Both the position numbers and the translations under genes were made by a program. The notes under the pieces are model-generated. The model was not told where the DNA came from. It was given only the letters and a program-made list of their open reading frames with translations, and did no database searches. A DNA stretch of 63,137 nucleotides, filler included, from Nemertoderma westbladi (Eukaryota; Animalia; Xenacoelomorpha): the NCBI GenBank assembly GCA_032718475.1. It is 4 parts of 4 records of this genome, joined end to end, with 100 filler letters (N's around TTAATTAATTAA, not from the genome) between each part and the next. Parts side by side here need not be neighbours in the genome. Positions count along the whole stretch, not along the records: positions 1 to 24,389 come from JAUCBJ010007304.1; 3 more parts are not named here. The stretch is one strand, 5' to 3'. The first letter of the stretch is position 1; every line of letters starts with the position of its first letter. This document shows, one piece after another, positions 1-54,959 of this stretch.

Positions 1-217
1 AATAATACAGTAGGCTTGACCGCAAATAAATTTAAGCCCACGAATCCAGTCTCCCGGTGTTATAAACGGGTCATTTGGACGCGCATGGACTGGCTTCGGC
101 TAATGTTTTTGGTTTGTTTTTGTATTAAATCTTGTCATCTTATAAAAGGCAGTTTATCAATAAAGACATATAAATTTCGGCAGGTTAAACTGCTGAAGGT
201 CTATAAAAGCGCGTACA
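1..217 (+). mobile_element. 3' end of LTR family 'S' (structured LTR), copy 1, truncated by window edge
   Basis: Shares the blocks CCAGTCT..GGACTGG, GCAGGTTAAACTGC and AAGGTCT..AAAGCGCG.ACA with four other copies. Ends ...GCGCGTACA at 217. The duplicated flank at 3517 (AGAAGATACC) shows the empty site, which fixes the 3' boundary. Confidence 0.8.
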
Positions 218-3200
218 AGAAGATACCATGGCAACAAATACAAATAAACTCTACTCATCCGAAACACACTTTCGTGTGGATGTTTAACAAAGATTGTAAT
301 TGAATAAGTATAATACATACGTATGCAATATAGAGCTGCATTATAAATAATATTACATTCAATGTTGAAGCACTAATTCAATATGGTAGTTTTGCGTGTA
401 GTGGTAACATATTTTATTGGGATTATGTACATAAAAATAATTGAAAACTCAAAATTCATAAACAAAATTATACATTCAACAGGATACAGTAGTCACATTA
501 TGCTCTGAAATTTATTTTAGTTTTAATTTCAACTTCGAACAAAAACTGAATGCAGCAATGGAAGCTGCTGACCCGTATTCGTCAACTAAGTAATAATATA
601 TACATCACAAAATAATATAAATTGCCGCAACACAAAAAGTTATGTGGAGCTTCCAAACGTGCTTGATCGAATTATTTCAGCAGAAAATAAATATTTTGTT
701 CAACCCGCCCACCCGCCGTTGAAATATTTAGAATCTAAAATATATTTTGCTTTTGGGTTTTGACAGTCGCCAATCCTCTTCGAGGATTGGCGAAAATTGG
801 CTGTTCAGAAAATATTATTGATGTTTGTAGATGTGCTCATTGTTATTTTGGAATTGCCTATCACAATAACTGTAGAGACATGGAATAACCATTGTGCAGT
901 AAGCTAAAGTGAATACAGTAGCATGTTGTGGCAACAAACAGATAACTATTTTGTATAAGGCATATTATATTATGTGTGCTGTGGTCCCACTTTACTGTAA
1001 CGAAATGAGTTATTATTTTATCAATAGCATTGAAAAGCCAAGAAGCAATACAATAAAGTCAAGAAATATACCGCAACATATTTTAACATCACACGATGGT
1101 AAATTTAGCTATGGATCTTGTCTCAGAGATAGACTCATGCTTGTGGTTGCTATGCATTCACACCTCCGTTGCTAAGGCTTCTAGCGGGCAATAAAAATAT
1201 TTTGCAAACAAATATTGTTTGAAATTACATATTTTCAACTAATATCAATCAACTGCTTTCTCGTTGCTATGGTTGATACCTAGTTGCTATGGAAACGAAC
1301 CCCTGTTGTTACGGTGTGGTTTTCAAATATATAATGTACTTGTGTAATCAAAAAAAGGTCCACATACAAATTTTCACCGATAACCAACTAATCGTTCCTC
1401 CGTTGCTATGCAAGATACTTGTTGCTATGGAAAATGACTACTGACTATTGCCAACTTTTGTCAGTCTATCACCTATATTGCATAGTAAGCATGACATAAA
1501 CATTTTCTACCGATTTCAGTTAACTGCGATGTGGTTGCTATGGAGTATAGCTTGTTGCTATGGTAAAAGACCCCCTGTTGCTATGGTGTGGTCCCTAAGT
1601 ATATCATACAATTCTAATAATCAATGTAGGTCTATATACAAATTTTCAACAAAAAGTAACCAACACTTTGTCCGTTGCCACTGTATGTACAGGAATACGC
1701 ATCTGTTGCCATGGAAACTGACTTCAGAGTCTGGCTAACTTCGCACATGTCTGTCTACCAACTACCCAGGCATACTGTAATCTTTCAACCGACATACAAT
1801 GAGACAACGCATTGACATTTTGGATGCAAGTTATATTTGTTTTAACAAAGATTTTGTAATAATTTTGAAGCAACCTTGCTAAATTTGGTTGAGGCGTTGC
1901 CATTGGCAACATGTCATACTTACTTTGGGATCTTAGAAATTTTTTTCCGCGTCAAAAACGGTCTACTAACTGTGGAGACAGAACCATTTACAACCGCGGT
2001 GAGGAATGCCTATTATAAGTTAAGTGCTTCTATTCATACAGTGTAGCCTCCATGGCAACAGAGATATACAACGCAAAATTATAAATGCAAAAAATTATGA
2101 AAAATAGCTAAAATGTGGATTTTTTTCAGGAAATCCTTAATAACTCGAGTCCATGTTAATGAAATTCGGAGATATTTAGTGCATTCGAAAGCTAAGAGTA
2201 TTATCTATCTTTATATGTAAAGAACTCGTCATGAAACCCACGGGAAGTTACATTTTAATGAGATCGTGTTTTTTTGTGAATTTGCGTGACACCAGAATAT
2301 TGCCGTTCAATCTTGAATAAAACTGAGCCATCGGCATGAAATTTAATAAATGATACATAATTAGTTGCGTAATCACATAATCTATCGATTGGGACAGAAA
2401 AATATTGAAAAAAATATGAATGGAAGCGGCCAAAAGCGTATTTAGTACATAATAAATAATTTATTTATAACTATTTATATTAGTTATAAATAGCATGTCA
2501 CTTGTATAAATTCGCGTAATTCATTGACGCCAGGCATGTCACATGATTATATTTTCATAATTTAATAAAAAATTTCATTCAAAAATGAGACAACTATATA
2601 ATTATTCTGTTTTGAAATGTAAATGTTGAGCGAGAAGCAACCAAATTACGTTTTTAATAACCTTTTCAACTCACCTGTAACTAGTCAAGATTTTATTATT
2701 TCTTTAAAAAATTACTTATACAAGTACACGGACAAGTATATTTTCATAATTGAGAAAAACCTATTCATCAGACCATGCCGTTGATGCTGTAGCTCGACTT
2801 AAAAAAGACGAAATTAACATTACAGTGAACGGGGAGCAGAATTTATAGAAAGGCCAATAGGAGCATTCTATCACTTTAATAACAACCAATTAGAAGCCGT
2901 ATCAACCATTTGGTAGCTAAAAAAATTTGAAGAGATGACTGTGCAAAATTTCACGTTTTGGTCTATAACTTTTGACCACGTGGATGAAAATTCTTGAAAT
3001 TACGTTCAAAAGTCTTAGAATTCTGCGCTGGTCACGATGGTATATAGTTTATGCCCCGTATTACCCCGGAACACCCTAAACAGGCCCGCCTGCATCGATC
3101 ACCTATATACCTCAGATTCCGATTCGATTCGACCAAAAGGTAATGCTCGTTCCTCGGCTTTTCGCTTAAAGGGGCCCGCCCTTTGCCATTTAGTGACTTT

Positions 3201-3253
3201 GTCAGTGCAAATTGGCAACACACAGTTGCCGGTATCTGCGGGCCGTTTCCAAC
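218..3253. repeat. ~3-kb non-coding transposon-like segment, copy A
   Basis: Near-identical to 3517-6559. Contains many GTTGCTATGG motifs and a 12-bp hairpin at 767-793. Possible CACTG-type terminus at 3207. Confidence 0.85.
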
Positions 3254-3516
3254 CAGCTGATACTATGAACTATGTACTTATTCTTTTTACTTTATTTATT
3301 CTACCCTGTTTATTTATTAGCCTATATTTATTCTTTTTACTGACCTTTGGCGGATCGGATAATTTCCTATAGTGCTACAGTACTGTACTACAGTAAGTCT
3401 CCTTCTACTCAATCAAACAATACGTAACACAGTACAGTACCGGTACAGCAGCCTAGGCCTATTTCAGAACAAATCGCTGTGCACAATAATAATTAAATAA
3501 ACAAAATTCCAGAAAC

Positions 3517-6500
3517 AGAAGATACCATGGCAACAAATACAAATAAACTCTACTCATCCGGAACACACTTTCGTGTGGATGTTTAACAAAGATTGTAATT
3601 GAATAAGTATAATACATACGTTTGCAATATAGAGCTGCATTATAAATAATATTACGTTCAATGTTCATGCACTAATTCAATATGGTAGTTTTGCGTGTGG
3701 TGGTAACATATTCTATTGGGATTATGTACCATAAAAATAATTGAAAACTCAAAATTCATAAACAAAAGTGATACATTCAACAGGATACAGTAGTCACATT
3801 ATGCTCTGAAAGTTAGTTTAGTTTTATTTTCAACTTCGAACAAAAACTGAATGCAGCAATGGAAGCTGCTGGCCCATTCTCAACTAAGTAATAATACTGT
3901 ATATACATGACAAAATAATACTGTTAAATTGCCGCAACACAAAAAGTTATGTGGAGCTTCCAAACGTGCTTGATCGAATTATTTCAGCAGAAAATAAATA
4001 TTTTGTTCAACCCACCCACCCGCCGATTGAAATATTTAGAATCTAAAATATATTTTGCTTTTGGGTTTTGACAGTCGCCAATCCTCTTCGAGGATTGGCG
4101 AAAATTGGCTGTTCAGAAAATATTATTGATGTTTGTAGATGTGCTCATTGTTATTTTGGAATTGCCTATCACAATAACTGTAGAGACATGGAATAACCAT
4201 TTTGCAGTACTGTAAGGTAAAGTGAATACAGTATTATAGTATGTGGCAACAAACAGATAACTATTTTTTATAAGGTCATATTTATTATGTGCGCTGTGGT
4301 CCCTCTTTACTGTAACGAAATGAGTTTTTATTTATCAATAGAAGTTAAGCCAAATATACCGCAAGATATAAAGGAATATTTTAACATCACACGATGGAAA
4401 ATTTAGCTATGGATCTTGTCCAGAGATAGACTCATGCTTGTGGTTGCTATGTATTCACACCTCCGTTGCTAAGGCTTCTAGCGGGCAATAAAAATATTTT
4501 GCAAACAAATATTGTTTGAACTGACATATTTTCAACTAATTTCAACCAACTGCTTTCTCGTTGCTATGGTTGATACCTAGTTGCTATGGAAACGAACCCC
4601 TGTTGTTACGGTGTGGTTTTCAAATATATAATGTACTTGTGTAATCAAAAAAAGGTAAACATACAAATTTTCACCAATAACCAACTAATTGTTCATCCGT
4701 TGCTATGCAAGATACTTGTTGCTATGGAAAATGAGTACTGACTATTGCCTACTTTTGTCAGTCTATCACCTATATTGCATAGTAAGCATGACATAAACAT
4801 TTTCTACCGATTTCAGTTAACTGCGATATGGTTGCTATGGAGTATAGCTTGTTGCTATGGTAAAAGACCCCCTGTTGCTATGGTGTGGTCCCTAAGTATA
4901 TCATATAATTCTAATAATCAATGTATGTCTATATACAAATTTTCAACAAAAACCCGCCAACCCTTTGTCCGTTGCCACTGTATGTACAGGAATACACATC
5001 TGTTGCCATGGAAACTGACTTCAGAGTCTGGCTAACTTCGCACATGTCTGTCTACCAACTACCGAGGCATACTGTAATCTTTCAACCGACATACAATGAG
5101 ACAACGCATTGACATTTTGGATGCAAGTTATATTTGTTTTAACAAAGATTTTGTAATAATTTTGAAGCAACCTTCCTAAATTTGGTTGAGGCGTTGCCAT
5201 TGGCAACATGTCATACTTACTTTGGGATCTTAGAAATTTTTTTCCGCGTCAAAAACGGTCTACTAACTGTGGAGACAGAACCATTTACAACCGCGGTGAG
5301 GAATGCCTATTATAAGTTAAGTGCTTCTATCCATACAATGTAGCCTCCATGGCAACAGAGATATACAACGCAAAATTATAAATGCACAAAATTATGAAAA
5401 ATAGCTAAAATGTGGAATTTTTTCAGGAAATCCTTAATAACTCGAGTCCATGTTAATGAAATTCGGAGATATTTAGTGCATTCGAAAGCTAAGAGTATTA
5501 TCTATCTTTATATGTAAAGAACTCGTCATGAAACCCACGGGAAGTTACATTTTAATGAGATCGTGTTTTTTTGTGAATTTGCGTGACACCAGAATATTGC
5601 CGTTCAATCTTGAATAAAACTGAGCCATCGGCATGAAATTTAATAAATGATACATAATTAGTTGCGTAATCACATAATCTATCGATTGGGACAGAAAAAT
5701 ATTGAAAAAAATATGAATGGAAGCGGCCAAAAGCGTATTTATTACATAATAAATAATTTATTTATAACTATTTATATTAGTTATAAATAGCATGTCACTT
5801 GTATAAATTCGCGTAATTCATTGACGCCAGGCATGTCACATGATTATATTTTCAAAATTTAATAAAAAATTTCATTCAAAAATGAGACAACTATAAAATT
5901 ATTCTGTTTTGAAATGTAAATGTTGAGTGAGAAGCAACCAAATTGCGTTTTTAATAACCTTTTCAACTCACCTGTAACTTGTCAAGATTTTATTTTTTCT
6001 TTAAAAAAAATGTTATCATAGTACACGGACAACTATATTTTCATAATCCAGAAAAACCTTTTCATCAGACCATGCCGTTGTTGCTGTAGCTCGACTTAAA
6101 AAAGACGAAATTAACATTACAGTGAACGGGAAGCAGATTTTAGAATTGGGCCAATGAGAGCGTTCTACTATTATAGGGCCTAAGGATGGCAACCAATTAG
6201 AAGCCGTACCAACCATTCGGTAGCTAGAATAACAAAAAATATTTTGTTAAAACAACGCACGTTTTGACCCATAACGTTTGACCACGTGGATGAAAATTCT
6301 TGAAATCACGTTCAAAAGTCTTAGAATTTTGCGCTGGTCACGATGGTATATAGTTTATGCCCCGTATTAGCCCGGAACAGCTTAAACAGCCCCATTTCCA
6401 CCGATCACCTATATACCTCAGATTCCGATTCGATTCGACCAAAAAGTAATGCTCGTTCCTCGGGTTTATGCTATAAGGGGCCCGCCCTTTGCCATTTAGT

Positions 6501-6559
6501 GACTTTGTCAGTGCAAATTGGCAACACATGTTGCCGGTATCTTGCGGGCCGTTTCCAAC
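3517..6559. repeat. ~3-kb non-coding transposon-like segment, copy B; truncates the BEL gag
   Basis: Colinear with 218-3253; the same spurious ORFs recur (e.g. 1448/4745 and 2248/5545). ...GTCAGTG at 6513 (CACTGAC on the minus strand) supplies the stop codon of the gag ORF. Confidence 0.85.
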
Positions 6560-8079
6560 AAGATATGATGTTTTGCGCTGCACTTTGCACACCTTGCATC
6601 GGAGTAACAGGTTCGCCGTTGGTGTCCTCGTCTGAGGCAATTATAACACAACCGCTTATCCCACATGACTTCACGTCTATCCTTTAATGATTTCTTTAGG
6701 AATTTATCACACATATTCAAACGGTGGGGCCCGTCGCACAGCACACATTTTGGTTTGATGTTACTTACCTTACTTTGAGTAACGTTGTGCACACTCGTTC
6801 TTTCTTCGGGCTTTCTTACTTGAATTCTCTTAGGAGACGTAGGGGGAGTTTTTCTTACCTGTTCTCTCCTGTCATTGGTTCGAGACTTGAATTTACTTAC
6901 GTCCTTAGTCGCTTTGTTGTCATAGTAAGATCTTTCAGTGTCTTTCCCGCTGTCTTCCTCTTGAGAAGCCTGGCTTTCGCCGTCGTCTGTATAACACACT
7001 GGTATTACCCTTCTCCTAGAAACGGGTTTCTCACTTACCTTGTTTTCCGGTGTCTTCTCTCTGGACTGCCTTAGGAGCTGTAATTTCACTTCTCCATCTA
7101 AGAATGACATGAGATCAGCCATGGTGGGGTCTCGTCGTTGTTGTTCCATCATATATAACACTTTCTTGTCCCAGCATGTACCTACTCCACCCTTGGGCAA
7201 AGTAGATGCTAAGGCTCCTACAACCATAGAATTCTGGTATTCATGAGACTTACCTAGCCAATCTAATTGTCTACAGATCTCCTGAATCTCGTCGGAAAAC
7301 TCTATAATCTCGCTGCTAAGAAACTTTCGGGGCGCCATTAATTTCACATATAAATACCTAGCTATGTTAGTCCTATTACCATACCTGATGTTCAGTGTAT
7401 CCCAAACTTGTCTTAATCCGTCTGGATGTCCAATAAACTTTAACGCCATTAACTTGGGAGATCCTTCCAAGCACTCGATGAGGAATCTAAGTTTCTCTCC
7501 ATTAGATAGTACAGAGTTCTGTATGTTATCTTTGTAATATTCATTAAAAGGTAACCATTTCATCTCATCTCCATTGAACTTGACGATCTCTCCCACCTTT
7601 ACCGCTTGCCGGGCTTCGGTTCTAGCCATTTGACGCGTAAAACTTTCTTGGGCCATCGTGTTATTTAATATCGAGTTATCGGTATATAAATTTCTCGGAT
7701 TATGATCAGGTCTATAGGGAATATCATTATCAACATGTCTATAATTACCCTTAATAGGGTTCACTATAGGAGTTTCTACTTCGCTAGCAGTATATATGCG
7801 TGTAGGCTCCACACCTTGCGCATGAGATACTTCAGACCTAACAGGTTGACACATTGTTGCCGGGGGTGGTGGTATACCCTTTTGTAAATTTACTAATTTA
7901 TCGCGTTCTAGCGCGATACTTTGCTGCACTTCTTGCAACTCTAACCTACTTCTTTTACGGTTCCCTTTAACTGTTGAACAGTCCCTTCTAACTCTCGGAC
8001 CTGTTGGGAGGAGCGCACTCGATTCTCCTCCATCTTTCCGAGGAGAATATCCATCCCCCGCCGTCTCTCGTCTACCCAA
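6508..8079 (-). mobile_element. BEL/Pao retrotransposon Gag, C-terminal part (capsid-like DUF1759 region plus three zinc knuckles); pol not present in window
   Basis: FNGDEMKWLPF...LSNGEKLRFLIECLEG is typical of BEL/Pao gag. Knuckles: CVLCDGPHRLNMC, CYNCLRRGHQRRTC and CAKCSAKHHILL. Confidence 0.9.
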
Positions 8080-9965
8080 TCAACCGCCGAAGCGGGATCC
8101 GCCAACGTCGTAGCGGGCAGACGAGGGACTACGGGCGATATATCCTTTATATTTCGCTCGGAGTCCAGGACCGACACTGTTTCAGGGGCTGTTCCTCTAG
8201 GCACAGATAATTTGGTGCTGTGTAAAGGGAATTTAAAGGTAGGTTCTGGGAGTACAGGTGTCTCTATCACCGAAGGGGTGATTTCAAGAACAGGCCTAAT
8301 TATTTCAGGCTCATCTACTATAGTAGGGAGTCTTTCTATTTTAATTATTTGGTCTGTGGGTTCTGTACTACCTAAGTTTGTGTTATTTAGTTGCCTTCTA
8401 ACAGCTGGGGGCAAATCAGGCAATTTCTGACGGTGGGACATTCTTTTACGTCTGCTTAGGCGAGATCGATTTCCTCCGCCTTCAGGATCGGTGGTATCGC
8501 CTTCCTCAGATGATGTATAACCTTGTCTTTTGGGAGTAGATCGATTCATCATCTGCATATTACTAGCTGTTAACTGTTTATTAAAGTTGTCTTGCCTCTC
8601 TTGAAGATTTTCCAACTCTAGTTGGGTTATCTCTTCAGATGCCCTCCGTTCTGCTTCTGACACTGCTATTTTTCTTTCCGCTTCGGCTGCTGCAGCTGCC
8701 GCTTTTGCTTCTGCCGCTTTTCTATCCGCTTCTGCCGCTGCCACTGCCGCTGCTGCTGTCTTTCTATCTTCTATACGTTTTTTCTTTACTTGTTCTTCTT
8801 GAACCTTAGCGATGCGGATGCTTTCATTGAATTTAGCTTGGTTCGCAGCTATCCTATCCACATCGATTGCGTCCAACACACGCTGGGCTCCTTCACTATT
8901 AGGGCTAAGCCCCTCTAGTCTTCTCCTCAACTCTTCATCTCCTACAAAACGTTGATAGTCCGACAGATAGATGTCAATGGCATCCCTCTTATGCGGCTTC
9001 TCTGCCGCCGCTTCACTTTCCACTTGGGAAAAAGTAGCGTCTGTTGATTCTCCATGGGTTGAGCGCTCATCCAGCTGGGCTTTCCACTGAGTCGTTCCTT
9101 GCACCTGGAGGCTCACCCGTTGAAACCAAGTCTTTACGGCAACTTGCAACGACGTGTCTTGTCTTCTTTTAGAAGCCTCCTCAAAGGCCGATAAGATTAG
9201 CCTGATTCGTAGAATTCTTTCTCTAACTTGATAAAGCAGCTGTCCCTGCTCTTGAGGTCCTTGGGGTTGTTGAAACAGTTGTTTTTCTAATCGCTCCATA
9301 GAGCTTACGAATCCCTGTACGTATCCGGCTGCGGACCTCTTCCACACAGCTGGATCGATGGTTTCCTTGGTTACTCCCATCCTGTGTATATCTTCCCAGG
9401 CAGCTTCTGATAAATCAAACGGGAGTCTGGGTCTGGGGAAGTTCCATTGCGACTCGACAATAGACTTCAGTTCTTCCCTTGTGTATCCCGCATAACTATC
9501 TTTAGTCGATCGCTTACTTCTCGCCCAATCGATCTGGTGTTCTTCCACCGCAATCAATAACCTAGTGAGTACGGCTGCAGGAAGGATGAGAAGGGGATCC
9601 GAATAAACCGCATCCGTCATCTTTGCTCCGCGCTCGGGTGTCAGCTCTACAGTATCCTCACTACTGGAGCTGTCGGGCCGTTGAGAAATAAGTTCTTGGC
9701 TCGCGGGTTGTTGTTGTTCCGCTGCTTCTTGGTCCCGCTTGACCTGAGCTCTAGTGCCTATGATAGACCTACAGCGCTTCACTAACTTCGCAAATTGCGA
9801 AATTGCTTCTACTAACCTAGGTTCTGACACAGCTACTGTAGGGGTTGCCTTTCTTACAGTAGGAGGGGTCTCAGACCTCGGTCTGGGATTCTCTATACTC
9901 CTATCTGAGAAACAGACTGTTGTTTCTAGGAGACTATCTGACAGAGTTTGCCTTGTGTCAGCCAT
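7941..9965 (-). mobile_element. N-terminal part of the BEL/Pao Gag (674 aa, coiled-coil, Ala/Glu-rich), joined to the downstream gag by a frameshift near 7945
   Basis: Same strand as and overlapping the gag ORF. The coiled-coil sequence ...QQLKGTVKEV continues as RLELQEVQQSIALERDKL in the -1 frame. Confidence 0.6.
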
Positions 9966-11282
9966 GTTTGATTGTACAGTTGAATGCCTACTGCTATATT
10001 ACAGTTAAAGCAAGTTTAGTAATTCAGTATCAACTGTTAGCCTAGTAATTAATTACCGATACTGCTACTTAGTGTAGCGTGATATATGTATAATATATTA
10101 GAATACCGGTATGCTTATAGTATATATATAAGTATTATTACAGACTAGGTTTGTCACAGGATACCGGTATGTAATTCCAGCACAAATATATATAAATATA
10201 TAATAGGCCTATCGTGAATACCGGTATGCAGCTTACACTTATAGTACATATAAGTATAATTATTAACTAAAATTAATTACAGAATACCGGTATGATTTCA
10301 GCCTAAATTTATAGAAATAAATATAATAAGCCTATCGTGAATACCGGTATATCAATTATTTTGGAATAATTGAATTTCTGAATTTTTAGGGGTTACTTGG
10401 TTACTTTAACTTACTTTATTACCGTTATTTAAGCAGTAGTCCAACTGATATTTAGACCTAATTGTTGTATGGCAGGCCTACTATTTATAAATCTTTGAGT
10501 TGATTTATAATATATATATACCCGTTTAATGGGTTTTGTCAATATTTGAAATAAATGTTATTATTTCTGGGGGGAGTCACTACACAGAAGCTGTGCGCTC
10601 TCAGTGGAGTGCTACTTGTTGGACACTAAAACAAATAATTCTAATTTACCTAAGTTACTTAATACTACAAATGACGTACAATTCGGGGTGAGATTACAAT
10701 CTCTAAATAAACACAAAAATTACAAGTACGAATTTTTAGGGTAATTTTACAAGAAGTCTACAAACCAGCCTAACAAAGGGTTAGAAATCTGGTTATTACA
10801 ACGGACAGAGTACTACGGTATTTGAAAATAATAAGTAGTAGTAAATATACTGCGTTGTCCAGATAGAAAAATACCACCGTCTGACGACTTATAGCCGTGG
10901 CGCTATAAGTACTACGTTATGTATCACGGAGTGTTCCTACCTAGAAGTTAATTACCGCGGTCTACCAGAACCAATGTGCCTATTAACCACTTTACAACAC
11001 AAATATACTGCCTACACACTAATCACCTTTGGAAAGCACTGTACACTAAACCCTAAATTAGGTACAAGTGCTTATACAATAAATAATCAGTAGTTAAATA
11101 TACTTGAACAGCTAAAAGAACCACAGTATCTGCCGGAGTGACCAAAGCATAAAATCTCCAGTCTTTACCTACGCCGAGCAGCCCTGATGTAGTACCGGAG
11201 TTAGTTTAACTATAACGGTATGTATAACAAGCACAATTACTGTAGGAATAAACTTGGGGATATGAATGTTGCGAATAATAGC

Positions 11283-11870
11283 ATAAACTCTGAATAATAA
11301 ATATTACGCTACGGGTACAGACTACTCAAACAAAATGCAGACCAAATACTGACAGACTACTATCAAGCCTAAACAAACTACGGTATATGCAGACTCCGAA
11401 ATGGTTAGTTAGTATGCGTTCTAACCTAGTAGTACGACTTATTCTTTCAGAGGGGGTTTACCTCACAGCACTGGAAGCCCCTACGTTCCCAACTGGCACT
11501 TTATCGGACATACACTCTACACACACCGAAATTTCCTCAGACCTAACAACAGCCAGACAACTATCCAGCCTACAAATTATCTAAATAAGAATTATACGCT
11601 ACCCGTACAGACTACACAAACAAAGTACAGACCAAACGATGGCAGACTACTATCAAGCCTAAATAAACTACAGTATATGCAGACTCCGAAATGATTAGTT
11701 AGTATGCGTTCTAACCTAGTAGTACGACTTATTCTTTCAAAGGGGGTTTACCTCACAGCACTTGAAGCCCCTACGTTCCTAACTAGCACTTTATCGGACA
11801 GATGCTCTACACACACTGCAATCCGTTCAGACTTAACAACAGTCAGACAACAATCTAGCCTACAAATTGT
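11283..11870. repeat. ~290-bp tandem duplication in the retroelement leader
   Basis: CAGACTACTATCAAGCCTAAA...GGGGGTTTACCTCACAGCACT...AGCCTACAAATT occurs twice in tandem. Confidence 0.85.
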
Positions 11871-12222
11871 CTGTACAATCTGAGCAGGCTTACACGCCTT
11901 CTGCTCAATATTGGCCTACAAATAAATAAAAACTGACAGAAATAAGTAAAATCTCAATAAAAAACCAGGGCTGCAGTCCCTGATTAATTATTAAGGCCTA
12001 CCGGTATATAATTATCGAATCGAATAATACTGCTGTACTTGTACTGTTGTAAGTACCAGTCCGGGTGATCTGGCAGTCAGGCCTACTGGTTACCGGTCGA
12101 CCGGTACTATCAACTTGATTGCTTACGCCGCAATCAAGAAGCAATAACTGTTACTGTTCTTACCAGAACAGTATTAAACTGTATTTTTTGCCTACCCTGC
12201 AATTAGACGAAACATCCGTTAT

Positions 12223-13371
12223 TGTTCGCGCTTTCAGACCTTTAGCAGTTTAACCTGCCAAATTTGGATGTCTTTTAGATGATAGATAGTCTTTAGCCTA
12301 TGACAAGTATTTGATACACTACATTAGCCGAAACCAGTCTATGCGCGATCATTCACCCGCTGGATATACCCGGGAGACTGGGTTCGGGAGCCTAACCGTA
12401 TTGCGGGGTAGGCCTACTGTATTATTCGACTGATCGTAATATATATAATCTCTGACAAATATTATTCACTTTCGGGAAATATTAACAGTTCCTTTAGGAC
12501 GTGGCGCTTTAAATATATAAACAGAGTTATGACTTAAACTAGACACAACGGGATGGCTATAGATTCACGTATATGGCGCATTCTTTAGGAGATGCTTCGT
12601 TATCAATCACGATCATACACAATACTGCACAATGCTGCACCCTAATCTGCCGACCTTCACTAATTTTAGTCACATATAAGGAGAACAACAGACAATACGT
12701 GTAGGGCCTATAAAATAGCATTAGATTCACTTCAAACCACTTAATGTAAGTCGCAATCGTTATATGTATCCGGTCTCTCTAACCTTTAGTATATCAAGAA
12801 GATTGGGGTGTCTGATTGTTTATCAGTATTCCAAATATAATATTCCATCAACAAATATAATGAATAACCGACAGTAAATAGCAGTACAAAGTTTAAGGTA
12901 TGAAGAAGATATGTTGTGTTATGTTATGATAACGGATATACGTTCTATAATTAAGCCTACTAATGTTGAACTAAAGACTGAAACACGGAGGTTCCACGCC
13001 GGTGTTGTAGGCTGTGGACAAAATCACATACTGACTCACTTCACTAGTTTCTATATACAATCTCCAACACAGAGGCAAAAAACGCTCTGATTGGTCGACC
13101 GAACAAAGAGAGAACAAAGAACAAAGAGATGTTCCACGTGGCAATATCAGCTGTTAGCCGTCGTCATGGTAGCTACACTGTTTCAAGAGGATCCGGCGTA
13201 TTGCGTCATAGAATTGCTAATCATGTCCGCTAAAGTACACATACAGAAGAAATGGCTTTTATGTCCTCTAAAACAACAATACAGTAAGGACACGGCCTTT
13301 TATGCCTGTTAAACCAACTACAGAGTACTTTACGGGGAAAATAACCGGCTAATTACGCAAAAGCCTTTACA
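12223..13371 (-). mobile_element. Full-length LTR family S copy 2 (1149 bp), probable 5' LTR of the BEL/Pao element
   Basis: On the minus strand it starts TGTAAAGGCTTTTGCG (matching 49410 TGTAAAAGCTTTTGCG) and ends GCGCGAACA. It lies 2.2 kb upstream of gag in the same orientation. The 5-nt flanks differ (GTTAT/GTCCA), so it is not a simple solo LTR. Confidence 0.75.
13030..13094 (-). promoter_or_regulatory. Putative LTR Pol II promoter: CCAAT box, TATA box and TCAGT initiator
   Basis: CCAATCAGAGCG (13094) is conserved in the copy at 49581. TATATA at 13057-13052 lies ~25 nt before TCAGT at 13034-13030. Confidence 0.55.
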
Positions 13372-13999: not shown

Positions 14000-14160
14000 A
14001 TACAAACACGACAGACAACTGATACAATCAGCAGCTGTGGCTTCTGTCCGTCTGTTGGTGCTGTTTTTTCGAATTCAGTAGGCCTTGCGGTATTGATTAA
14101 ATAAAGCTGTTTCGCATACCGGTAACTGTAGAAGTACGGTACAAATAAGTTCGACAAAAT

Positions 14161-15501
14161 ATGGTTAAAATCACAGAGCAATTACTCCGAAAACGTTCCG
14201 AACATAACAATTGCGAAATTTCTACCTTAGAAGAAGTTTCTTTGCATCAGGAAGATATCGAAAAAATAGAACATTTGGATAAATGGTGCCGGGAACTAAA
14301 GATCCTTTATCTGCAAGGCAATGTAATCGCAAAAATCGAGAACGTGAGCCGGTTAAAAAAGCTAGAGTACTTAAATCTCGCGCTGAACTGTATTGAGCGG
14401 GTTGAGAATCTGGAGGGGTGCGAGTCGTTGAATAAACTTGATTTAACCGTAAATTTTATTGGAGATATAACTTCGTTGTCGTCATTAAAAGGTAATATAC
14501 ATTTGAAAGAACTTTATTTAACTGGTAATCCTTGCGCACAGTACGACGGCTATAGGGAATATGTTATCTCCACGCTCCCCCAACTACAGTCGCTAGATGG
14601 GACCAGAATACACCGGTCACATCAGATAAAAGCCACTCAGGACGTCGAGGAAAAACTCCAAGCGCTGTGGCACCAACAGAACGAGAACATGTTAGAACGC
14701 CAGCGCCAGCGAATAGAGGCGAAACGCGTCGAAAAGGAAGCGAAACTAGTCGACGAAACGGACCTAACTGCGGAAGAGCGGGAGGCGAAACGACGCGACT
14801 TCTGGGCGGAGGAAAGCGGGTACACCCCGGAGGCGCGGGTCGAGATGCAGCGCCGGATCCGAGAGGAGAAAGGAGACGCGGTGGAGCGGCTGGAGAGGAG
14901 CGAACCGAGTCGCACCCGCTCGCTATTCAACGAGGACGGTCGGCCCTACAACGTGAACGAACCGAAGCTCGAGTTTAATCTCTCCGAGAACGATGAGAAA
15001 CAAAGTTACATTCTCGATCTGTCAGTTTACAAACACCTCGATTCGAGTCTGTTGGATGTGGACGTTCAACCCAACTATCTTCGGATTATCGTTAAAGGTA
15101 AAATATTCCAATTGCACCTCCGCAGGGAGGTGAATACGGACCGATCGAAAGCCCAGAGGTCTGGAGTTACTGGTCATCTGTTGCTGACTATGCCATTTAT
15201 GGATGCGTTTATTAAATCGCATACATCAGCAGTTACCGGCGATAGTAAGCTGGTTGGGCGTAGTAGCGATAGTAAGCTGGGGGGACGTAGTAGCGATAGT
15301 AATCTGGGTGGGCGTAGTAGCGATAGTAAGCTGGTTGGGCGTAGTAGCGATAGTGCAACTGATAGTTCGGGGGATACAGAGCAGGTAAGAGGGGCGTTAA
15401 ATAAAAGGGAATGGTTGGAGGTTGGGGATTTATCTTGGAAGAAAGATAAAGTTACCGAATCAGAATGTGTTGACGACTCAGATGTACCTCCCTTAATGTA
15501 A
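14161..15501 (+). CDS. DNAAF11: Dynein axonemal assembly factor 11 (LRRC6/tilB), intronless, 446 aa
   Basis: Starts MVKITEQLLRKRSEHNNCEISTLEEVSLHQ; has LRRs, an LRRcap (GNPCAQYDGYREYVISTLPQL), a CS-like domain (VDVQPNYLRIIVKGKIFQL) and the C-terminus DDSDVPPLM. Confidence 0.95.
   Translation: MVKITEQLLRKRSEHNNCEISTLEEVSLHQEDIEKIEHLDKWCRELKILYLQGNVIAKIENVSRLKKLEYLNLALNCIERVENLEGCESLNKLDLTVNFIGDITSLSSLKGNIHLKELYLTGNPCAQYDGYREYVISTLPQLQSLDGTRIHRSHQIKATQDVEEKLQALWHQQNENMLERQRQRIEAKRVEKEAKLVDETDLTAEEREAKRRDFWAEESGYTPEARVEMQRRIREEKGDAVERLERSEPSRTRSLFNEDGRPYNVNEPKLEFNLSENDEKQSYILDLSVYKHLDSSLLDVDVQPNYLRIIVKGKIFQLHLRREVNTDRSKAQRSGVTGHLLLTMPFMDAFIKSHTSAVTGDSKLVGRSSDSKLGGRSSDSNLGGRSSDSKLVGRSSDSATDSSGDTEQVRGALNKREWLEVGDLSWKKDKVTESECVDDSDVPPLM
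15238..15354 (+). repeat. 27-bp coding minisatellite (SSDSKLxGR x4) in LRRC6
   Basis: GTAGTAGCGATAGTAAGCTGGTTGGGC-like unit repeated about 4 times in frame. Confidence 0.9.
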
Positions 15502-17299: not shown

Positions 17300-17492
17300 A
17301 GAGAATTTGAAATTTTCGAGTGACTATTTTTAAACATCAATAACTTCGGTTCTACAGGGCCGTTTAATCTGAAACTTTTTTCATTGCATAGAGGATAGAT
17401 TGTAGTGTGTGAAATAGGATAAAACTTGGGAAAAGACTTATGTGCACAAAGTGCAAAATGCACTTAAATCTAGTGAACATTTTTTCGATAGT

Positions 17493-18160
17493 TGTTCGCG
17501 CTTTTGAAGACCTTTAGCAGTTTAACCTGCCAAATTTTATATGTCTTTTAGTTAATTAAACCACTTTAGCATACGACAATAATTTATGCTAATACGCAAA
17601 ACATTAGCCGAAATCAGCCCATGCGCGATCATTCACCCGATGGATCTACACCCGGGAGACTGAATTCGGATGCTTGAATTGTATTATTACAGTGTAAGGT
17701 TGCAGTGTATACCTAATGTATTATTCGATAGATCGCTAATAATTAATCTCTGACAGATATTATTGGCTTTCGGGAAATATTAACAGTTCCTTTAGGACGT
17801 GGCGCTTTATCTATTTAAACAGAACTAAGACTTATACTAAAACGCAACGATACTGCTTATGATTAAAGTATAAAGCGTATTCTTTAGGAAATACTTTGTT
17901 ACCAATCACAATCATACACACTATTCTGCCGACCGTCAGTATATTTGATCACACATAAAGAGAGCAGTAATTGACTCACGTAGGGTCTGCTAAATAACAT
18001 TGGATTCAATACACACCACATTAATATAAATCGCAATTGTTATATATAGCCGGTCTCTCTAACCTGTAGTGTTATCAAGAAAATTGGGAATTGGGTGATT
18101 TATCCGTATTCTCCAAATAGCAATATTTCCATCAACAAATATTTACAATTAATAACTGAC
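17493..18160 (-). mobile_element. LTR family S copy 3 (3' portion), interrupted by the Gypsy insertion
   Basis: Colinear with 12223-12870 and ends GCGCGAACA. Homology stops exactly where the Gypsy LTR begins. Confidence 0.85.
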
Positions 18161-24389: not shown

Positions 24390-24489
24390 NNNNNNNNNNN
24401 NNNNNNNNNNNNNNNNNNNNNNNNNNNNNNNNNTTAATTAATTAANNNNNNNNNNNNNNNNNNNNNNNNNNNNNNNNNNNNNNNNNNNN
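24390..24489. other. Assembly gap with six-frame-stop linker
   Basis: 44 N + TTAATTAATTAA + 44 N. Confidence 0.97.
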
Positions 24490-27802: not shown

Positions 27803-27842
27803 CTGCGATTAATTAGCAAAATTAATAAACAGAAAAATGTAC

Positions 27843-47119: not shown

Positions 47120-47791
47120 GTTTTATACTGCTATTTACTGTCAGTTCTTCATAATATGGTTGATGAATTATTATATTTGGAATAACGATAAATAACCCCA
47201 AAACCCAATATTCTTGATATACCGAAGGTAAGAGAGAAGGGTTACAGATAAACGATTGTGACTTATGTTAAAGTGGTTTGAAGTGAATCTCATGTTATTT
47301 GATAGACCCTACATAAGTCAGTCTGTGTTCCTTTTATATGTGACTAAAATCAGTGAAGATTGGCAGATTAGTGTGCAGTATTGTGCAGCATTGTGTATGA
47401 GTGAGTCTGTTAAAGAAGCAATTCCTAAAGAATGCGCCATATATGTGAATTATAATTAAGCCATATCGTTGTGAGTAGTTTAAGTCATAACTCTGTTTAT
47501 ATAGATAAAGCGCCACGTCCTAAAGGAACTGTTAATATTCCCGAAGGTGAATAATATTGTCAGAGATTATATAATACTGTCAGTCGAATAATACATTAGG
47601 CTTACATAGCAATAAAATTAAACCGTCGAACCCAATCTCCCGGGAATATCCAGCGGGTGAATGATCGCGCACAGATTGGTTTCGACTAGTGTAGTGAATC
47701 AAATACTTGTCATAGACTAAAAACCGATTTAATATCTAGAAGACATCTTAATTTGGTGGGTTAAACTGCCAAAGGTCTGAAAGCGCGAACA
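47120..47791 (+). mobile_element. LTR family S copy 4 (5' end probably in the gap)
   Basis: Reverse-complement homolog of 12223-12885; ends AAAGCGCGAACA. Confidence 0.85.
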
Positions 47792-49807
47792 GTTATCGAA
47801 AGGGGAGCCTTCGGGTCACCTCCGGCCTCGGCCGACTGTGTGCTTGCTTGCTACTCTACTGTAGGCCTATGTGTCACAAATGTCAAACATTGATGTCCGA
47901 ATTTGATTTTCTTTAATGATTGATTTAATGATATATGCTTGGTTCATTCAGACGTATCTTTTTGTATATCCCCAGGATGTCTCACTATATGGGGATGTCC
48001 CCAAATAGGGACATTTGGGGACATATACCACTATATCAGGCCAAATCACCTAATTAATTTTGAATTGAAATTCAACCTTAGAACAATGCGACGTGATTTA
48101 ATATTATTCAACATTGAAATATATTAAAATATATAAATGAAATGAATTTTTTCAACATTGAGATATAATTTAAATATATACAACATACTGATATTATTTA
48201 ACTAATTATTATTATGTGAATATAAAAAGTTATTCACTTCTACTGTAATTGACTTTCAATTCAACTTTACTTTAGATCAACTTTAATAGTAACTGAATCC
48301 GACTGGGCGTTATCAGTCGGTTGTATAATATATCGTAACGTAGCAATCTATACGCGGAAGTGTAAGTTTATTTGCAAACCTGAAACTTTTTATGTATTAT
48401 TGACATGTTATGTGTTGAAAATTATTATTCATCTAGTAATCCCTTCACCATGGCGACTAGTGAATGAGTCACACCTTTGATCTCCAGCTTTGAGGTCCCG
48501 TGTTCGATCCGATGTCAAGTCTGTAACCAGTCTGGTGTCATAGCAACGACTTATACTTTAGAACTTTACATAGAAACCGCGCACTCTACCGAGTTTTTCA
48601 AGCTCTAAAAAATGTTTAAAATCTTTTGGAGGTAATTGAAAAAATGTAGTTTCAGTGCTCCCACCAAATGCGTTTTTTAATTCTTGGCGCTGTTTCTAAA
48701 ATTTCGCGGGATTTGACTATTATTTAGCAAAAACTATGAAAATTGTGTTATTTCAAAATTTTCCACTCAATAGAATGAAATTTATAAATCTTTTAAGTTG
48801 TAACTTCAATTATAATGGTGGCGATATAAATAACTTGTATAAGTTGCGCCTGTTCCTTCTGAAGGGAACTTTTTAGTTTACTTTGCTACATTACGTTCCT
48901 TTTAAATCTAGTCAGATTAATTATTGTGAAGAATGATAGAACCAGACAGCATTCCCGACTGGGCTCTGATAATAATAATATTTGTCGACTATGAAAAGAA
49001 AAATTGAAAAATTTGTAGACTTATATAAATATTTCATACATTTAATATTTTTCTGACCTAAAAAGATATTGACGCAAAATAGGAAAGCGAGGCATATCGG
49101 TCTACTTATTTTCAACCACTTTTCTCTCCCATTTTTTTTATTTGATATTCGCGTAAATTTTCATACATTTATGGGGTGTGTACAAAACATAGACCTAAGA
49201 CCTAAGCTCCTACAAAAGTAAGACCCCCCTGGTACAAAAGTAAGACCCCCCCCAGGTACAAAAGTAAGACCCCCACTGGTACAAAAGTAAGACCCCCCTG
49301 GTACAAAAGTAAGACCCCCCCTGGTACGAAAGTAAGACTCCCCTGGTACAAAAGTAAGACCCCCTGGTACAAAAGTAAGACCCCCCTGGTACAAAAGTAA
49401 GACCCCCCCTGTAAAAGCTTTTGCGGACAAAATAAGTCATTTTGCGCAATATGCGCTAAATACTCTAAAAGGCTTATAATTGTACAACTACGTGTCTGTC
49501 AAAAAACTCAGAGTTGGGATGACAAAATCTACCAGCTGTTCCTTTGTGTGAGGAATCTGTTTTGTTGACATATATTTCAGCCAATCAGAGCGATCTAACT
49601 TCCTCTGTTTACAGTGGCCTATAAGAAATGACGCAATGCGGCAAATTCTGAGAATTCATTCATTCAGAATTCATTCATTCGGACATTCTGACTTTTGCCC
49701 TAACATCAGTGGCCTAGAGAGTCATAAGAACGCAAATCTATTAACTCTCAACGCATCATACGTAACACTGCACCTGACTCGCACAAACTGCAATACTGAT
49801 GTTGCAT

Positions 49808-50892
49808 GATACTGATGAAATTATTGCAGCAATCAGATCAGTATACGATGGTTCGACAACATTTGTGTCTACTGTTGACGGTGACACAGAACCATTTGAA
49901 GTGTTATGGGGCGTCCTCCAAGGAGACACACTTGCAACATTCTTGTTCATTATTGTGGTTGACTATGTTCTACGCATGTCCTTAGATCATCATAATGATG
50001 ATGGGGTGATGATAACTCCACCTACTGGCTCCAGAAGTCGAGGAAATCCTGCCAAGTACCTAACTGATCTAGACTATGCTGATGACTTAGGAGTACTCTC
50101 AGAATCATTAGAGGGAGCCCCACGGCTCCTCAGCTCATTAGAACATGCTGCTTCTCGTGTTGGTCTTTTTATTAACTCCAGAAAGACCAAAATCCTGACC
50201 GTTAACTTTGAAAGTCCTCAGCAAGTCTCTGATCGGATGAGCATAAGCTCAAAGGATGGTATGCTTGAGCATGTGGACGACTTCTGTTACCTGGGATCGT
50301 GGGTCCGGAAGTCAGGTGAGGACCTTCGAATACGTAAGGGAAAGGCATGGACAGCCTTGAATGGGCTTTCCAGGATTTGGAAATCACCGAGAATTAATCG
50401 GAAACTTAAGGTCCGATTATTTAGAGCAGCAGTAGTTCCAGTACACCTCTACGGGAGTCCATGCTGGGCTCTAACTGCTGAGGACACCAAATCTCTGGAT
50501 GGCACATTCACAAGAATGCTACGCCGGGTTCATTGTGTCAAGTACAATGCACACATCTCCAACCAGACACTATATAACATTGGAGGTGTCTCATTGGTTC
50601 CCCCAAGCTTGACACTAGAACAAAATCGCCTCCGCTTTGCAGGACATTGCTTTCGCCGTGAGGACCAGCCAGTGCATAATCTTGTACTTTGGCAGCCTCA
50701 TGGAGTGAATAAGCATGGTGGGCAGCCCATGACTTTCTTGAGACGCATCTTAAAGGACACTGGCCTTAAAGATGCGGATGATCTAGCAAATGTCATGGGT
50801 GATAGGGAGTTTTGGCGGTGCAATTTTGTTGACAAGCCGGCACAGCATTCTTAAAAATGCAGCTGCAATGCAGCATGCCGATCTTAGTAGTA
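49808..50892 (+). mobile_element. 5'-truncated RTE-clade LINE with open RT C-terminal frame
   Basis: GVLQGDTLA, DLDYADD; (TAG)n tail; TSD GATGTTGCAT at 49798-49807 and 50893-50902. Confidence 0.92.
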
Positions 50893-51436
50893 GATGTTGC
50901 ATCGTTAACACCGTTTTTTACTGTTTTATACTATTGTTAATTGTTATATATTAATGGTTGTTATATTTGGAGAATACTGATGAATAATCGTTAAATCCCC
51001 CTTAACTTTCTTAATTACTGAGGTAAGCAGAAGGGTGTATCAGTAGCAATTGTGGCTCAATTTATAGTGGTCTGTGTGAATTTAATGTTATTTCAAAACC
51101 CCCAACGTATGTGAGTCTCAATCCTCCTTATATATGACTAAAATCAGTGGCAGACGGCAAATCAGTGTGCGTTAGTGTGAATATTAGTGTAGAGTGTTAG
51201 TGTGAAGGTTAATAAAGCATTCCTAAAGAATGCGCCATTTGCGCTATCCTATTGCCACTAGTTGTAATTAGTGTCAGTCATAACTCTGCTTGATACTTAA
51301 AGCGCCAAGTCCTAAAGGAACTGTTAATATTTCCCCGAAAGTAAATATAGTTGTCGGAGATTATATGGTAGTGATCAATCGAATATTTCAAAGTAGCCTA
51401 CTGCAATACTGCTCCCTCTTTATAACAGAATCCAGT

Positions 51437-53798
51437 AAGGAAAACTAGAGTATACTCTCTGTAGCCGAGTAGGGGCACTTATTCCACGCGGTGGTACTCG
51501 TCTGATCCCGACGTATATATAATCATGGCCCTCTACCCAATGTAACATGCGAATAAATCGGTATGCGTACAGGCGTATAAGCTACATGATTGTCATACTC
51601 GTGCGTATGCGAGATTCAATGAGGGATCTCATGCAATTTGTGTCATGCTGAGAAATGAAGGGGTCCCAGTATCGTAGGAGGCATCTTTATCACCATTACC
51701 CCAACTTGTCTGCGTAAATAGCCAGTATCATCTATATCATATAGATGATTGGGGCACTCATAGATTGATGTAATAATGTATCTTCTAAACCCCATTCAAA
51801 AATCATGGACCTCTACCACTGCATTATATAGTCGAAAAGCCAAATCCTTGATATCTCAGTCAATTTAAATATTTCAAACACCATTACAGAAATGGATTTA
51901 ATTGGCTCAATTTATTTCATTATATTTGGTTAGGCCCCATAATCATTTCATTCCAGTATAGAATTTATTTCTTTGAAATTGGCACTACAAATTGAATATA
52001 AAAAATTGTAATAGTAAATGATATATGGGGTAAATTTGGAGATCAAATATGCCATATGGGTTTTTGGTTTTGTTGTTTTTCATATTATCTTCAAATAAAA
52101 AAAACTTGATGGAATAGTCATTGTGGCGTGCAAACCGCTTTAAAAAAAGATCCTTTCCTGACATCAAAGAGCATTATTATTTAAAGTAATAATAGCTCAC
52201 GTATGGTATTTTGAGTATTTGGCCTCTCGATGATATTACATTGAAGCATCTCAAAGTGACAATATATATTTAATCAGCTTTAAGAATATATTAACTTTTC
52301 ATCAGTTAAGTGAGATGTAGAAATTACTACTAATGCATTGCATCGACTCATCGACTCACAAACCATAGTCAAATATATTTCATTTAATTATGATTATTTA
52401 ATAATAATAAATATTGACATCTAATATATAATTATAAAATCAAGCAGGCAAATCCCTAATATCACAATATATGGGTTTATTATATATGATACAATGCTGT
52501 TGGAAATGTTGATAGGGTAGGTTTTCCCATGTAATAGCCTGTCAAGATACTATTAATAAATTCATTCGATGGATCATATTTGAATGGAAAATATAATTTT
52601 GTATTTCAATAATATGCAAGTAAGATTCTGTTAGATAGACAATTTAGGCAAAGAGGTTTACTACCCCCAACCCAATAAATATAGTTACAATGAAAATCAC
52701 CACCCCCAACCCGACCACCTCCCCAAGGTCGCTCCGGTCGCTTCGCTCCCTACGCTCCACTATTGCAATGTTAGCAAATTCCCAAGTTCTTTAATAAAAA
52801 ATTATATTTTGAGTATAGGTAAAGTTGTATATATTGATATATTGGCAAAACTACTCAACGTATTCAAAATCTGAATATAGCATTAGAAATGCATTGTATA
52901 GGAGAACATTTCTTACACTAAAAGATTTTCCATATCTGTTATAGTTTTTGAAATAGTCAGACATGAGCGAAGGATATATCAAATATTTATAGTAAAGTCT
53001 GATTTCACCAGTAGCTGTCATCGTCAATATGGATTGTCATATATCGTTAGAAACGGGTGATCAAACTGTACATTCACATTTTTTCAAAAACAAAATTCGA
53101 TGATCAGTTCTAGAGTTATTGTCAAATTACGGAAGGCTAATTTTGGAGGACCATATCACCGGTACCATTAGGCCTATTGAGTTAGAATCGATTTTAATCT
53201 ACTTGAGACATTCCTGTAAGTGTTTTTTAGTTTGAAAGTTTCATTCTAAAATGAATAGAAATAATTTTACCAAATTCCGATCTTTCGATCATATTGTAGA
53301 CCAGTTTTGACCTTGAAGAATTAACTTTTTCTGAAATTTTGTTTGACGTACCCCCCCTAAGTCGATGATGAGGAACACTTTTGCTGTGTTACACTTTTCG
53401 ATACGGTGACTCCTTCTGCGTCCGATTTGCCAAAAAACACGATCTTTGTACGATCGGCCATAATTGACCCTGAAAAAATGTATCAACTAAAATTTCGAAA
53501 TATGCAAAAGTTGCTCCTACCCCCAAGCTATCATATCATAAAAAAAAATTTGGGGGTCAAGCCTTTCGTTTTCGAGTTATTTAGAAAAAACTGAAAAATA
53601 TGATCTTTTACGATCAGGGCCAGATCAGGCACTTCTATTGCAGTTGATGGAATTTCCTTCTTATGGGAGGTACTCCTAACATTGTTCTATCGAATTATAA
53701 AAAAAAAATCGGGGGTCAAGCCTTTCGTTCTCGAGTTATTCGAGTTACCGTAACCTGATCTTTTGATCTTTTACGCGATCTTCGGGAGCCCTTTTGAC
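51437..53798. mobile_element. 2.4-kb non-coding insertion flanked by 13-bp direct repeats
   Basis: AACAGAATCCAGT at 51424-51436 and 53799-53811; internal duplication GGGGGTCAAGCCTTTCGTT near the right end. Confidence 0.6.
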
Positions 53799-54959
53799 AA
53801 CAGAATCCAGTCTCCTACATTCGTGGGTCATACGCCGCGCTAGACTGGCTTCAGCTGATGTCAATTAGTACGGGCAATAGTCAATTCATAAGACACTTAA
53901 ATTAGCAGGTTAAACTGTTAAAGGTCTAAATATTCCTTAATCAAAGAGTCATATTGGGTTTTAGCAGTGAATTTCACTTTAGTATGTAAAGTAATAAGTC
54001 AAGTAGGTTTGATGTCAAGAATGAGTTAGATTTTTAAGCTTAGATATAGAAAACGGCTTGGGATAATGACCCAAATGTGAATTATTTAGTTATAAAATAC
54101 TCACGAGATAATACCGAATTTGTATTTTGTTTTAATAGATAGTTTTGCTGTGCTGTGTTGTTTTAATTGTAGTTAAATAACAATTTTTATCAACTCAACT
54201 AGGAAATGGTAATGGGTCTTGGCGGTCTTACCTTTGTACTTTATACCATTACTTTTGGTTTTGTACCAGGGCGGTCTTACTTTTGTACCAGGGGGGGTCT
54301 TACTTTTGTACCAGGGCGGTCTTACTTTTGTACCAGGGGGGGGGGTCTTACTTTTGTACCTGGGGTGTCTTGCTTTTGTACCTGGGGGGTCTTACTTTTG
54401 TACCTGGGCGGTCTTACTTTTGTACCTGGGGGGGGGGTCTTACTTTTGTGCCAGGGGGTATGGTGTCTTACTTTTGTACCAGGGGCGTCTTACTTTTGTA
54501 CTTGGGTGTCTTACTTTTGTACCTGGGGGGTCTTACTTTTGTACCTGGGGGGGGTCTTACTTTTGTACCAGGGGGGTCTTACTTTTGTACCAGGGGGGGT
54601 CTTACTTTTGTACCAGGGGGTCTTACTTTTGTACCAGGGGGGGGGGTCTTACTTTTGTACCAGGAGGGGTCTTACTTTTGTACCAGGGGGGTCGTACTTT
54701 TGTACCTGGGGGTCTTACTTTTGTACCAGGAGGGGGGGTCTAACTTTTGTACCAGGGGGGTCTTACTTTTGTAGGGTCTTATGTCTTTGTTTTGTACATA
54801 CCCTACATTTATGCCTTCTAATGAAGGCATAAATGTATCTAGGCGCCCCCGAACCCTCCCCCTGGGTCCTCCCCCCCCCTGCACCCTCGGGGCCCCCCAC
54901 GCGGTCCGCCCTCGCGCCCCCTCTCCCGCCCCCCACAGAAACCCCGCCCCCCCTGGGCG

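Follow-up and report, generated by a model that had tools for sequence, protein, structure and literature searches.

A covarying RNA domain at the LTR end of a BEL/Pao-type element from Nemertoderma westbladi, a likely pseudoknot and possible start module for tRNA-free reverse transcription

Replication of the Belpaoviridae is described in the ICTV profile as poorly understood and tRNA-primed, with an 18-nt primer site for tRNA-Arg or tRNA-Gly and LTRs of 0.2-1.2 kb (PMC8742986). In the accessible part of one source, self-priming is described for the Tf1/sushi group and, among plants, predicted in the copia-type lines Tcn1 and TAR (PMC6317226). According to the accessible text of its report, Tf1 requires three duplexes, namely the primer with its site and each neighbour of that site with the LTR downstream of the primer (PMC10085805), and self-priming of Tj1 is presented likewise in what is accessible of PMC4600332. 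Similar excerpts describe a long-range pseudoknot beside the primer site of Ty1, the pairing of which affects reverse transcription (PMC3592414), and the retroviral U5-IR (PMC3601003). Among titles and abstracts, with most subscription journals outside the scope of the search, we found no work on BEL/Pao self-priming or on a pseudoknot at an LTR end.

We analyzed a window of 63,137 nucleotides from N. westbladi (GCA_032718475.1), by which we mean the whole stretch of four joined parts, filler included. It holds five copies of an LTR (copies 1 to 5), one of which, copy 2, retains its leader and gag. The element resembles the Belpaoviridae in its animal host, in its 1149-bp TGT...ACA LTR joined to gag, and in a gag with DUF1759 and zinc knuckles, but differs from them in that no TGG follows the 5' LTR and no tRNA-type primer site is apparent. 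With the Tf1/sushi group (Tf1/Tf2, Tj1; 'pretzel') it has in common, as far as the accessible sources describe that group, the lack of a tRNA-type site and a site after the 5' LTR that is complementary to RNA of the element itself. The sequences on both sides of this site can also pair with the LTR downstream of the primer, as those sources report for the group, which in copy 2 is a pairing potential only. The Tf1-like match between primer site and own LTR comprises 11 pairs, one of them G-U, at one 5' LTR, that of copy 2. However, Tf1/sushi elements are Ty3/gypsy chromoviruses, and the BEL/Pao-type Gag places the present element outside that group. Unlike in Tf1, the upstream duplex belongs to a domain of ~170 nt that covaries and resembles a pseudoknot, ~700 nt separate the primer from its site, and the candidate primer would lie ~95 nt downstream of an RNA start predicted from motifs, whereas the Tf1 primer is the RNA 5' end. 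Ty1 is a tRNA-primed copia element, and its pseudoknot, in the part of its description that is accessible, uses the first RNA bases and gag sequence rather than the LTR end. In retroviral U5-IR and U5-leader stems, the last U5 bases pair upstream, right before the primer site; these stems are simple and lie beside a tRNA primer, whereas here the partner loop is 115 nt away inside another stem.

The LTR copies and the element attached to copy 2

All five copies were located at the coordinates given in the initial annotation. The window start truncates copy 1 (1..217, +), leaving the 3' part of the LTR, and an unrelated 3-kb repeat follows it directly. Copy 2 (12223..13371, -) is a complete 5' LTR, and no target duplication encloses this LTR by itself. 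Copy 3 (17493..18160, -) consists of the 3' 668 bp of the LTR and ends at a Gypsy element, and copy 4 (47120..47791, +) is a 3' part whose 5' part adjoins the gap at 46904-47003. Copies 1, 3 and 4 are read as 3' or solitary LTRs. Copy 5 (49410..53930, +) is degraded, lacks at its end both the terminal ACA and the partner strand of the closing helix described below, and is interrupted by two insertions with target duplications, a LINE at ~49800-50900 and a second insertion at ~51438-53810. The possibility that copies 1 and 2 form the ends of an inverted-repeat element was considered and, at 72% identity, ruled out.

A 20-letter motif common to the copies occurs five times in the window against 0.02 expected. 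It was found at no place in viral contigs and at five places in metagenome contigs, all five being chance matches without flanking likeness. In the public run X1, summed contig depth ranged from 27,000 to 2.2 million inside copy 2 and was 26 beyond 13390, while at the other end of the LTR the adjoining 90 bases outside it had a depth of 65,000-74,000; these 90 bases are thus also repeated and therefore part of the element. The LTR family is highly repeated and has a sharp end at copy 2, contig depth being no copy number.

Promoter-like motifs of copy 2 (13030..13094, -) include CCAAT at 13094, TATATA at 13057 and an initiator-like TCAGT at 13034. CCAAT and TATATA align with copy 5, and the TATA and initiator motifs predict an RNA start near 13030. 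A 2.2-kb leader (9966..12222, -) joins the LTR to gag and is AUG-poor on its sense strand, with 5 AUGs against 37 expected (P 5e-11), compared with controls of 25 against 32 expected on the opposite leader strand and 27 against 29 in the DNA after copy 4. This depletion indicates that LTR and gag belong to one transcript, and it confirms the orientation first assigned; the LTR call was likewise upheld, with TATA, CCAAT and initiator-like motifs upstream and gag downstream. The BEL/Pao-type gag (6508..9998, -) comprises overlapping frames at 9998-7941 and 8079-6508 and contains zinc knuckles and a DUF1759 match (E 1.4e-12). Searching gag against 2509 longer candidates returned a single match, a polyprotein with PF05380, PF00078, PF03564, PF17921 and PF18701, which are BEL/Pao Pfam families, so that the element is provisionally filed with BEL/Pao on gag alone. 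A tblastn search of the window with a BEL/Pao polyprotein recovered gag only and no pol. Gag ends at an inserted 3-kb repeat, by which the copy 2 element is cut, and the matching 3' LTR is outside the window.

Several minor features were observed in and around the LTRs. Two bases past ACA, copies 3 and 4 carry the same 8 letters, TATCGAAA (17483-17490, -; 47794-47801, +), after which the DNA behind the two copies is unrelated; a target preference, a common target repeat and a shortened primer site are possibilities. A splice-donor-like AG/GT(A/T)AG is present in 4/4 LTR copies covering the site (12783, -; 18063, -; 47228, +; 51023, +) and an acceptor-like TGTCAG, near 12453, in copies 2-4, from which an intron within the LTR is possible. 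The R region (12885-12620) showed no convincing fold common to the copies. A second conserved domain (12445..12530, -), upstream of the structured domain described below, has a 9-bp helix of 12530-12522 with 12454-12445 that encloses a nearly invariant block; its 36/36 paired cells and one double change do not exceed the control (107/500 shuffles). The nearly invariant block at 12445-12580 (-), in which the words CCTAAAG and GCGCC are repeated, has homologues in other copies and the highest contig depth within the LTR.

Structured domain at the LTR end

The structured domain occupies the last 165-180 bases of the LTR, which in copy 2 corresponds to 12223..12387 (-). In copy 1 (+), stem A (42..97) pairs 42-44 with 95-97 and 46-52 with 87-93 and carries an inner stem of 53-56 with 67-70. 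The closing helix (79..214) pairs 79-84 with 209-214, its outer pair being A-U here and U-A in copies 2-4. The terminal hairpin (164..202) spans 176-197, with the loop GUUAAA at 184-189, inside AGAC (164-167) and GUCU (199-202). In copy 2 (-), stem A pairs 12385-12375 with 12340-12330, the inner stem 12374-12371 with 12359-12356 and the closing helix 12348-12343 with 12231-12226, and the hairpin lies at 12262-12241. The positions previously given for ACGCGC (79-84) and GCGCGT (209-214), and those at 47665 and 47783, proved correct. Stem A extends past a pyrimidine-pyrimidine mismatch by GAA/UUC in 5/5 copies and is longer than first proposed. Ahead of it, a hairpin folds in two of the five copies (copies 1 and 2). 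A middle stem predicted in copy 2 was rejected, being absent from copies 1 and 3.

The copies had been said to keep their pairing while their sequence diverges, and the alignment bears this out. In a covariation model of 32 pairs on the five-copy alignment (159 cells), with the structure drawn from these same copies, standard pairs filled 153/159 cells (96.2%) and double-sided changes were found in 5/32 pairs; two of these belong to stem A, while inner stem, closing helix and hairpin have one apiece. Shuffling gave 1.3 +/- 0.9 double-change pairs, with 1 of 500 shuffles reaching 5, and slid controls gave 0-2; as the shuffle ignores relatedness and the model comes from the same copies, the count is support and neither a probability nor a significance test. 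Two unpaired cells in the inner stem are due to a one-column slip in copy 1, and the four in the closing helix all belong to copy 5, where that strand is missing from the end. Inspection by eye showed an extra double change in stem A of copy 4, two pairs further out. By contrast, AGAC/GUCU, initially described as enclosing the hairpin, consists of four pairs that never vary and is no evidence of covariation. Read in the sense direction, stem A and the hairpin of copies 1-4 contain 0 non-pairing cells, and read in the antisense direction they contain 8, in agreement with the earlier claim that the G-U wobbles fit the sense strand only.

The closing helix had been proposed as a compensatory pseudoknot helix, and this claim stands in part. 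Its CGCGC loop strand is present in 5/5 copies and one double change (U-A to A-U) affects the outer pair in one of the four complete copies (copy 1), but copy 5 has no partner strand. Its 3' strand adjoins the integrase end, and conservation of that end could be the explanation. We consider it very likely that an RNA structure is under selection at the LTR end. The sense-strand, selected RNA of the initial annotation is well supported, whereas the formation of the pseudoknot helices together is something we infer.

Variation was also assessed in contigs of four public runs from four studies aligned over 12185-12400, X1 possibly being the window's own sample; the contigs are short, partners are unphased in the variant table, and a missing row is no proof of identity. 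Most of the 35 variant rows fall in loops and in the variable middle. Within the stem A 3' strand, variants (at least 4%) at 12340, 12338 and 12337 represent 18%, 22% and 22% of X1 depth, and variants are thus found at 3/3 positions at which a transition would yield a G-U, compared with 0/4 of the remaining ones. Hairpin variants at 12244 and 12256 preserve the pair, and one at 12262 breaks the outermost pair (28%). The contigs of the four runs showed no variant in either strand of the closing helix, in the inner stem, or from 12350 to 12381, loops included; since the invariance includes loops, part of the contig signal is plain conservation.

H-type pseudoknots consist of two crossing helices without common bases and with a middle linker of 0-2 bases. 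In 4/4 complete copies, stem A and the closing helix have no base in common and are separated by a 2-base linker, and A residues precede the closing strand. We consider it somewhat more probable than not that the two helices are formed simultaneously as such a pseudoknot. Nested folding of the same four copies gave the closing helix at 0.89-0.98 and stem A at a mean pair probability of 0-0.025, and RNAalifold assigned GGUCU as the partner of the stem A 3' strand, a rival pairing that accommodates the same G-U variants. These predictions speak for an alternative without a standing pseudoknot, in which the helices would alternate between two states, one containing stem A and the other the closing helix plus a nested extension, thereby switching the RNA between translation and packaging or priming; the two AGAC and two GUCU words would permit the exchange. 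We nevertheless judge such alternation unlikely, given the lack of a common base and the match of the 2-base linker and A-rich approach to H-type geometry. In addition, the energy of stem A plus closing helix is 2.5-6 kcal/mol below the nested minimum before the pseudoknot penalty and lies within that penalty of it, and the outer pair of UGUC/GACA, a second helix in the nested fold, is broken in ~31% of X1 and X2 depth. Stem A itself is taken as real because double changes hit its 5' strand. Support for the closing helix comes from a single double change, from its invariance and from its folding energy, for which reason pseudoknot and switch are not separated by these data.

Primer site, self-priming and other roles

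A TGG directly after the LTR was found at 0/4 complete LTR ends, and copy 2, judged by this missing start, is apparently without a tRNA-type primer site. The 11 bases right after its LTR (12212..12222, -), at the primer-binding position, are complementary to 12939-12929, and this candidate self-primer (12929..12939, -) would form 10 Watson-Crick pairs and one G-U with them. The comparison was made on one molecule, copy 2, which is the sole copy with its leader. In controls that, as all the priming complementarity tests, were chosen after the sequence was seen, an anchored run of at least 9 Watson-Crick pairs occurred at 19 of 2163 positions and an 11/11 Watson-Crick match at 1/2163; with G-U allowed, at least 11 pairs were common (99/2163). 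The G-U position of the duplex has a Watson-Crick partner in 3440.5/3459.5 of the contig depth spanning it in X1 and in 4386.4/4386.4 of that in X2.

Two leader segments could also pair with the LTR. The one at 12190..12203 (-) begins 20 bases past the LTR and is complementary to LTR 12413-12400 at 13 of 14 bases, a match equalled by 2/2210 leader positions. The other, at 12020..12030 (-), is 11/11 complementary to LTR 12429-12419, which holds the conserved AAUACA hexamer and adjoins 12400-12413; it is the sole perfect 11-mer among 2213 leader positions. A same-strand control produced equal match lengths as often (2/2210 14-mers and 3/2213 perfect 11-mers), and therefore only the position of the leader matches is unusual. 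When the whole 5' RNA was folded, the probability of both long-range duplexes was 0. After copies 1, 3 and 4, self-complementarity reached at most 5 pairs. A loose end in run X5, which may be an RNA run, follows a copy-1-type LTR end and has a primer site that differs from that of copy 2 at two central places, both of which are compensated by the upstream site of copy 5 (8/11 pairs, by eye, on different molecules), and leader variants in X1 and X2 fit a copy 3 loop variant (again by eye and on different molecules). Such cross-molecule compensation is suggestive only as a possible sign of co-change between primer and site. A primer made from a GT-AG splice joint was also considered: its best match was 8 Watson-Crick pairs in copy 2, matched by 3/25 controls, and 5 and 4 pairs in copies 3 and 4, and this reading was dropped. 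From the list of functions initially offered for the domain, self-priming has gained specific evidence, while hammerhead and HDV-type cores were not found. On balance, we think that the element probably primes its own reverse transcription.

Our main reading, to which we assign a probability of roughly 45%, is that the LTR end is likely an H-type pseudoknot that also serves as a start module for tRNA-free, self-primed BEL/Pao reverse transcription. The start-module role is proposed because of the three potential Tf1-like duplexes, of which the closing helix is the upstream one, and because the Ty1 pseudoknot lies beside the primer site; the connection between pseudoknot and priming would be one of position. 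At the 5' copy in the RNA, two pairings would form, one joining 12939-12929 to the 11 bases that directly follow the LTR and the other joining leader 12203-12190 to LTR 12413-12400. The closing helix would stop three bases ahead of the primer duplex and stack on stem A across the 2-base linker. Held in this way, the RNA would be cut by the element's RNase H after the primer, past 12929, and reverse transcriptase would extend the primer through ACA and thereby unwind the pseudoknot. Cleavage by RNase H is modeled on Tf1, where such a cut reportedly frees the primer. A broader version, which we regard as doubtful, would be a BEL/Pao lineage that does without host tRNA, using its own internal R stretch as primer and the LTR-end pseudoknot in place of the tRNA body to dock reverse transcriptase and RNase H, with an RNA class outside Rfam.

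The position of the domain at the 5' end of the genomic RNA and the conservation of CGCGC in 5/5 copies would also suit a packaging or dimerisation signal read by Gag, in which the GC-alternating loop pairs two RNAs and self-priming is independent; the accessible text on Ty1 adds that its 5' pseudoknot beside the primer site may contain packaging signals (PMC3592414). This role appears quite unlikely to us, since the loop is self-complementary over 4 bases only, compared with 6 for its match to the LTR end, and in copy 1 the change in the outer loop base is accompanied by one at the LTR end. Improbable too is a role in RNA processing or translation, where the domain would define or hide the poly(A) site or aid ribosome entry in a 3-kb 5' UTR. 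Copy 2 has no AAUAAA, AAUACA is found ~200 bases from the end in 4/4 complete copies and is in a region complementary to the leader 11-mer, and 13 AUGs lie upstream of gag; on the other hand, the hexamer is missing from copy 5, the gag AUG is 2.2 kb from the domain, and scanning fits an AUG-poor leader.

That the pairing works in single-stranded DNA, or represents protein-binding words near the integrase end rather than RNA, is in our view very improbable. Invariant columns in copies 1-4 amount to 49/64 paired and 50/97 unpaired ones, making much of the signal plain conservation, and G-T pairs form in DNA too. However, the strand left single during reverse transcription is the minus strand, which the polarity (0 versus 8) excludes, and double changes are not expected of binding words. 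A self-cleaving ribozyme seems barely credible. The 7-bp stem, whose loop pairs with the 3' end, is reminiscent of P1/P2 in HDV-type ribozymes, several bases in the loops do not vary, and HDV-like and hammerhead ribozymes of retroelements have in common with it a pseudoknot-like topology in a terminal region, but the catalytic core elements of both are absent here. HDV-like ribozymes have P3/L3 between the P2 5' strand and the P1 3' strand, where only 2 bases are present. The hammerhead core consists of CUGANGA and GAAA, and CUGANGA is absent from both strands in 5/5 copies. Moreover, the cyclic-phosphate end usual for such ribozymes cannot prime. Rfam gave no match across the whole window at gathering score; at E up to 10, searched in copies 1, 2 and 4, it returned one unrelated weak match each and no ribozyme. 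This agrees with the earlier statement that the domain belongs to no recognised family.

The case for a self-priming start module at the LTR end draws on sequence analysis of four complete copies and one leader. If true, a BEL/Pao element whose primer site is self-complementary and adjoins a covarying fold would represent a further origin of tRNA-free priming, and the RNA is compact (170 nt), its structure and role being directly testable.

Other features of the window

A DNAAF11 gene (14149-15501, +) is present as one uninterrupted frame in a single exon. Its best matches are animal proteins (47-48% identity over full length), for which reason the window was judged to be animal DNA. A CCT chaperonin gene (27053-29642, -) lies in two pieces with a tandem-repeat stretch between them, and from these two genes the host appears to have few introns and to evolve fast. 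The stretches 33344-36631 (+) and 55166-58314 contain long open frames that match no Pfam family.

Gaps with the TTAATTAATTAA spacer are located at 24390-24489, 46904-47003 and 55061-55160, the second of which conceals the 5' part of copy 4. The Gypsy-type element (18161-24389, +) has one open 1791-codon frame with RT and RNase H and a 5' repeat without the initial TG. Its terminal repeats are identical across 101 bases, up to the spacer gap, and the element is thus considered young. The 3-kb non-coding repeat is represented by two copies that are 94% identical (218-3256 and 3517-6562), with abundant GTTGCYATGG words and short inverted ends; one of them terminates the BEL/Pao gag. A truncated LINE likewise occurs in two copies, 97% identical (49800-50900, +, and 31490-32510, -), the first being inserted in LTR copy 5 with a 9-bp target duplication.
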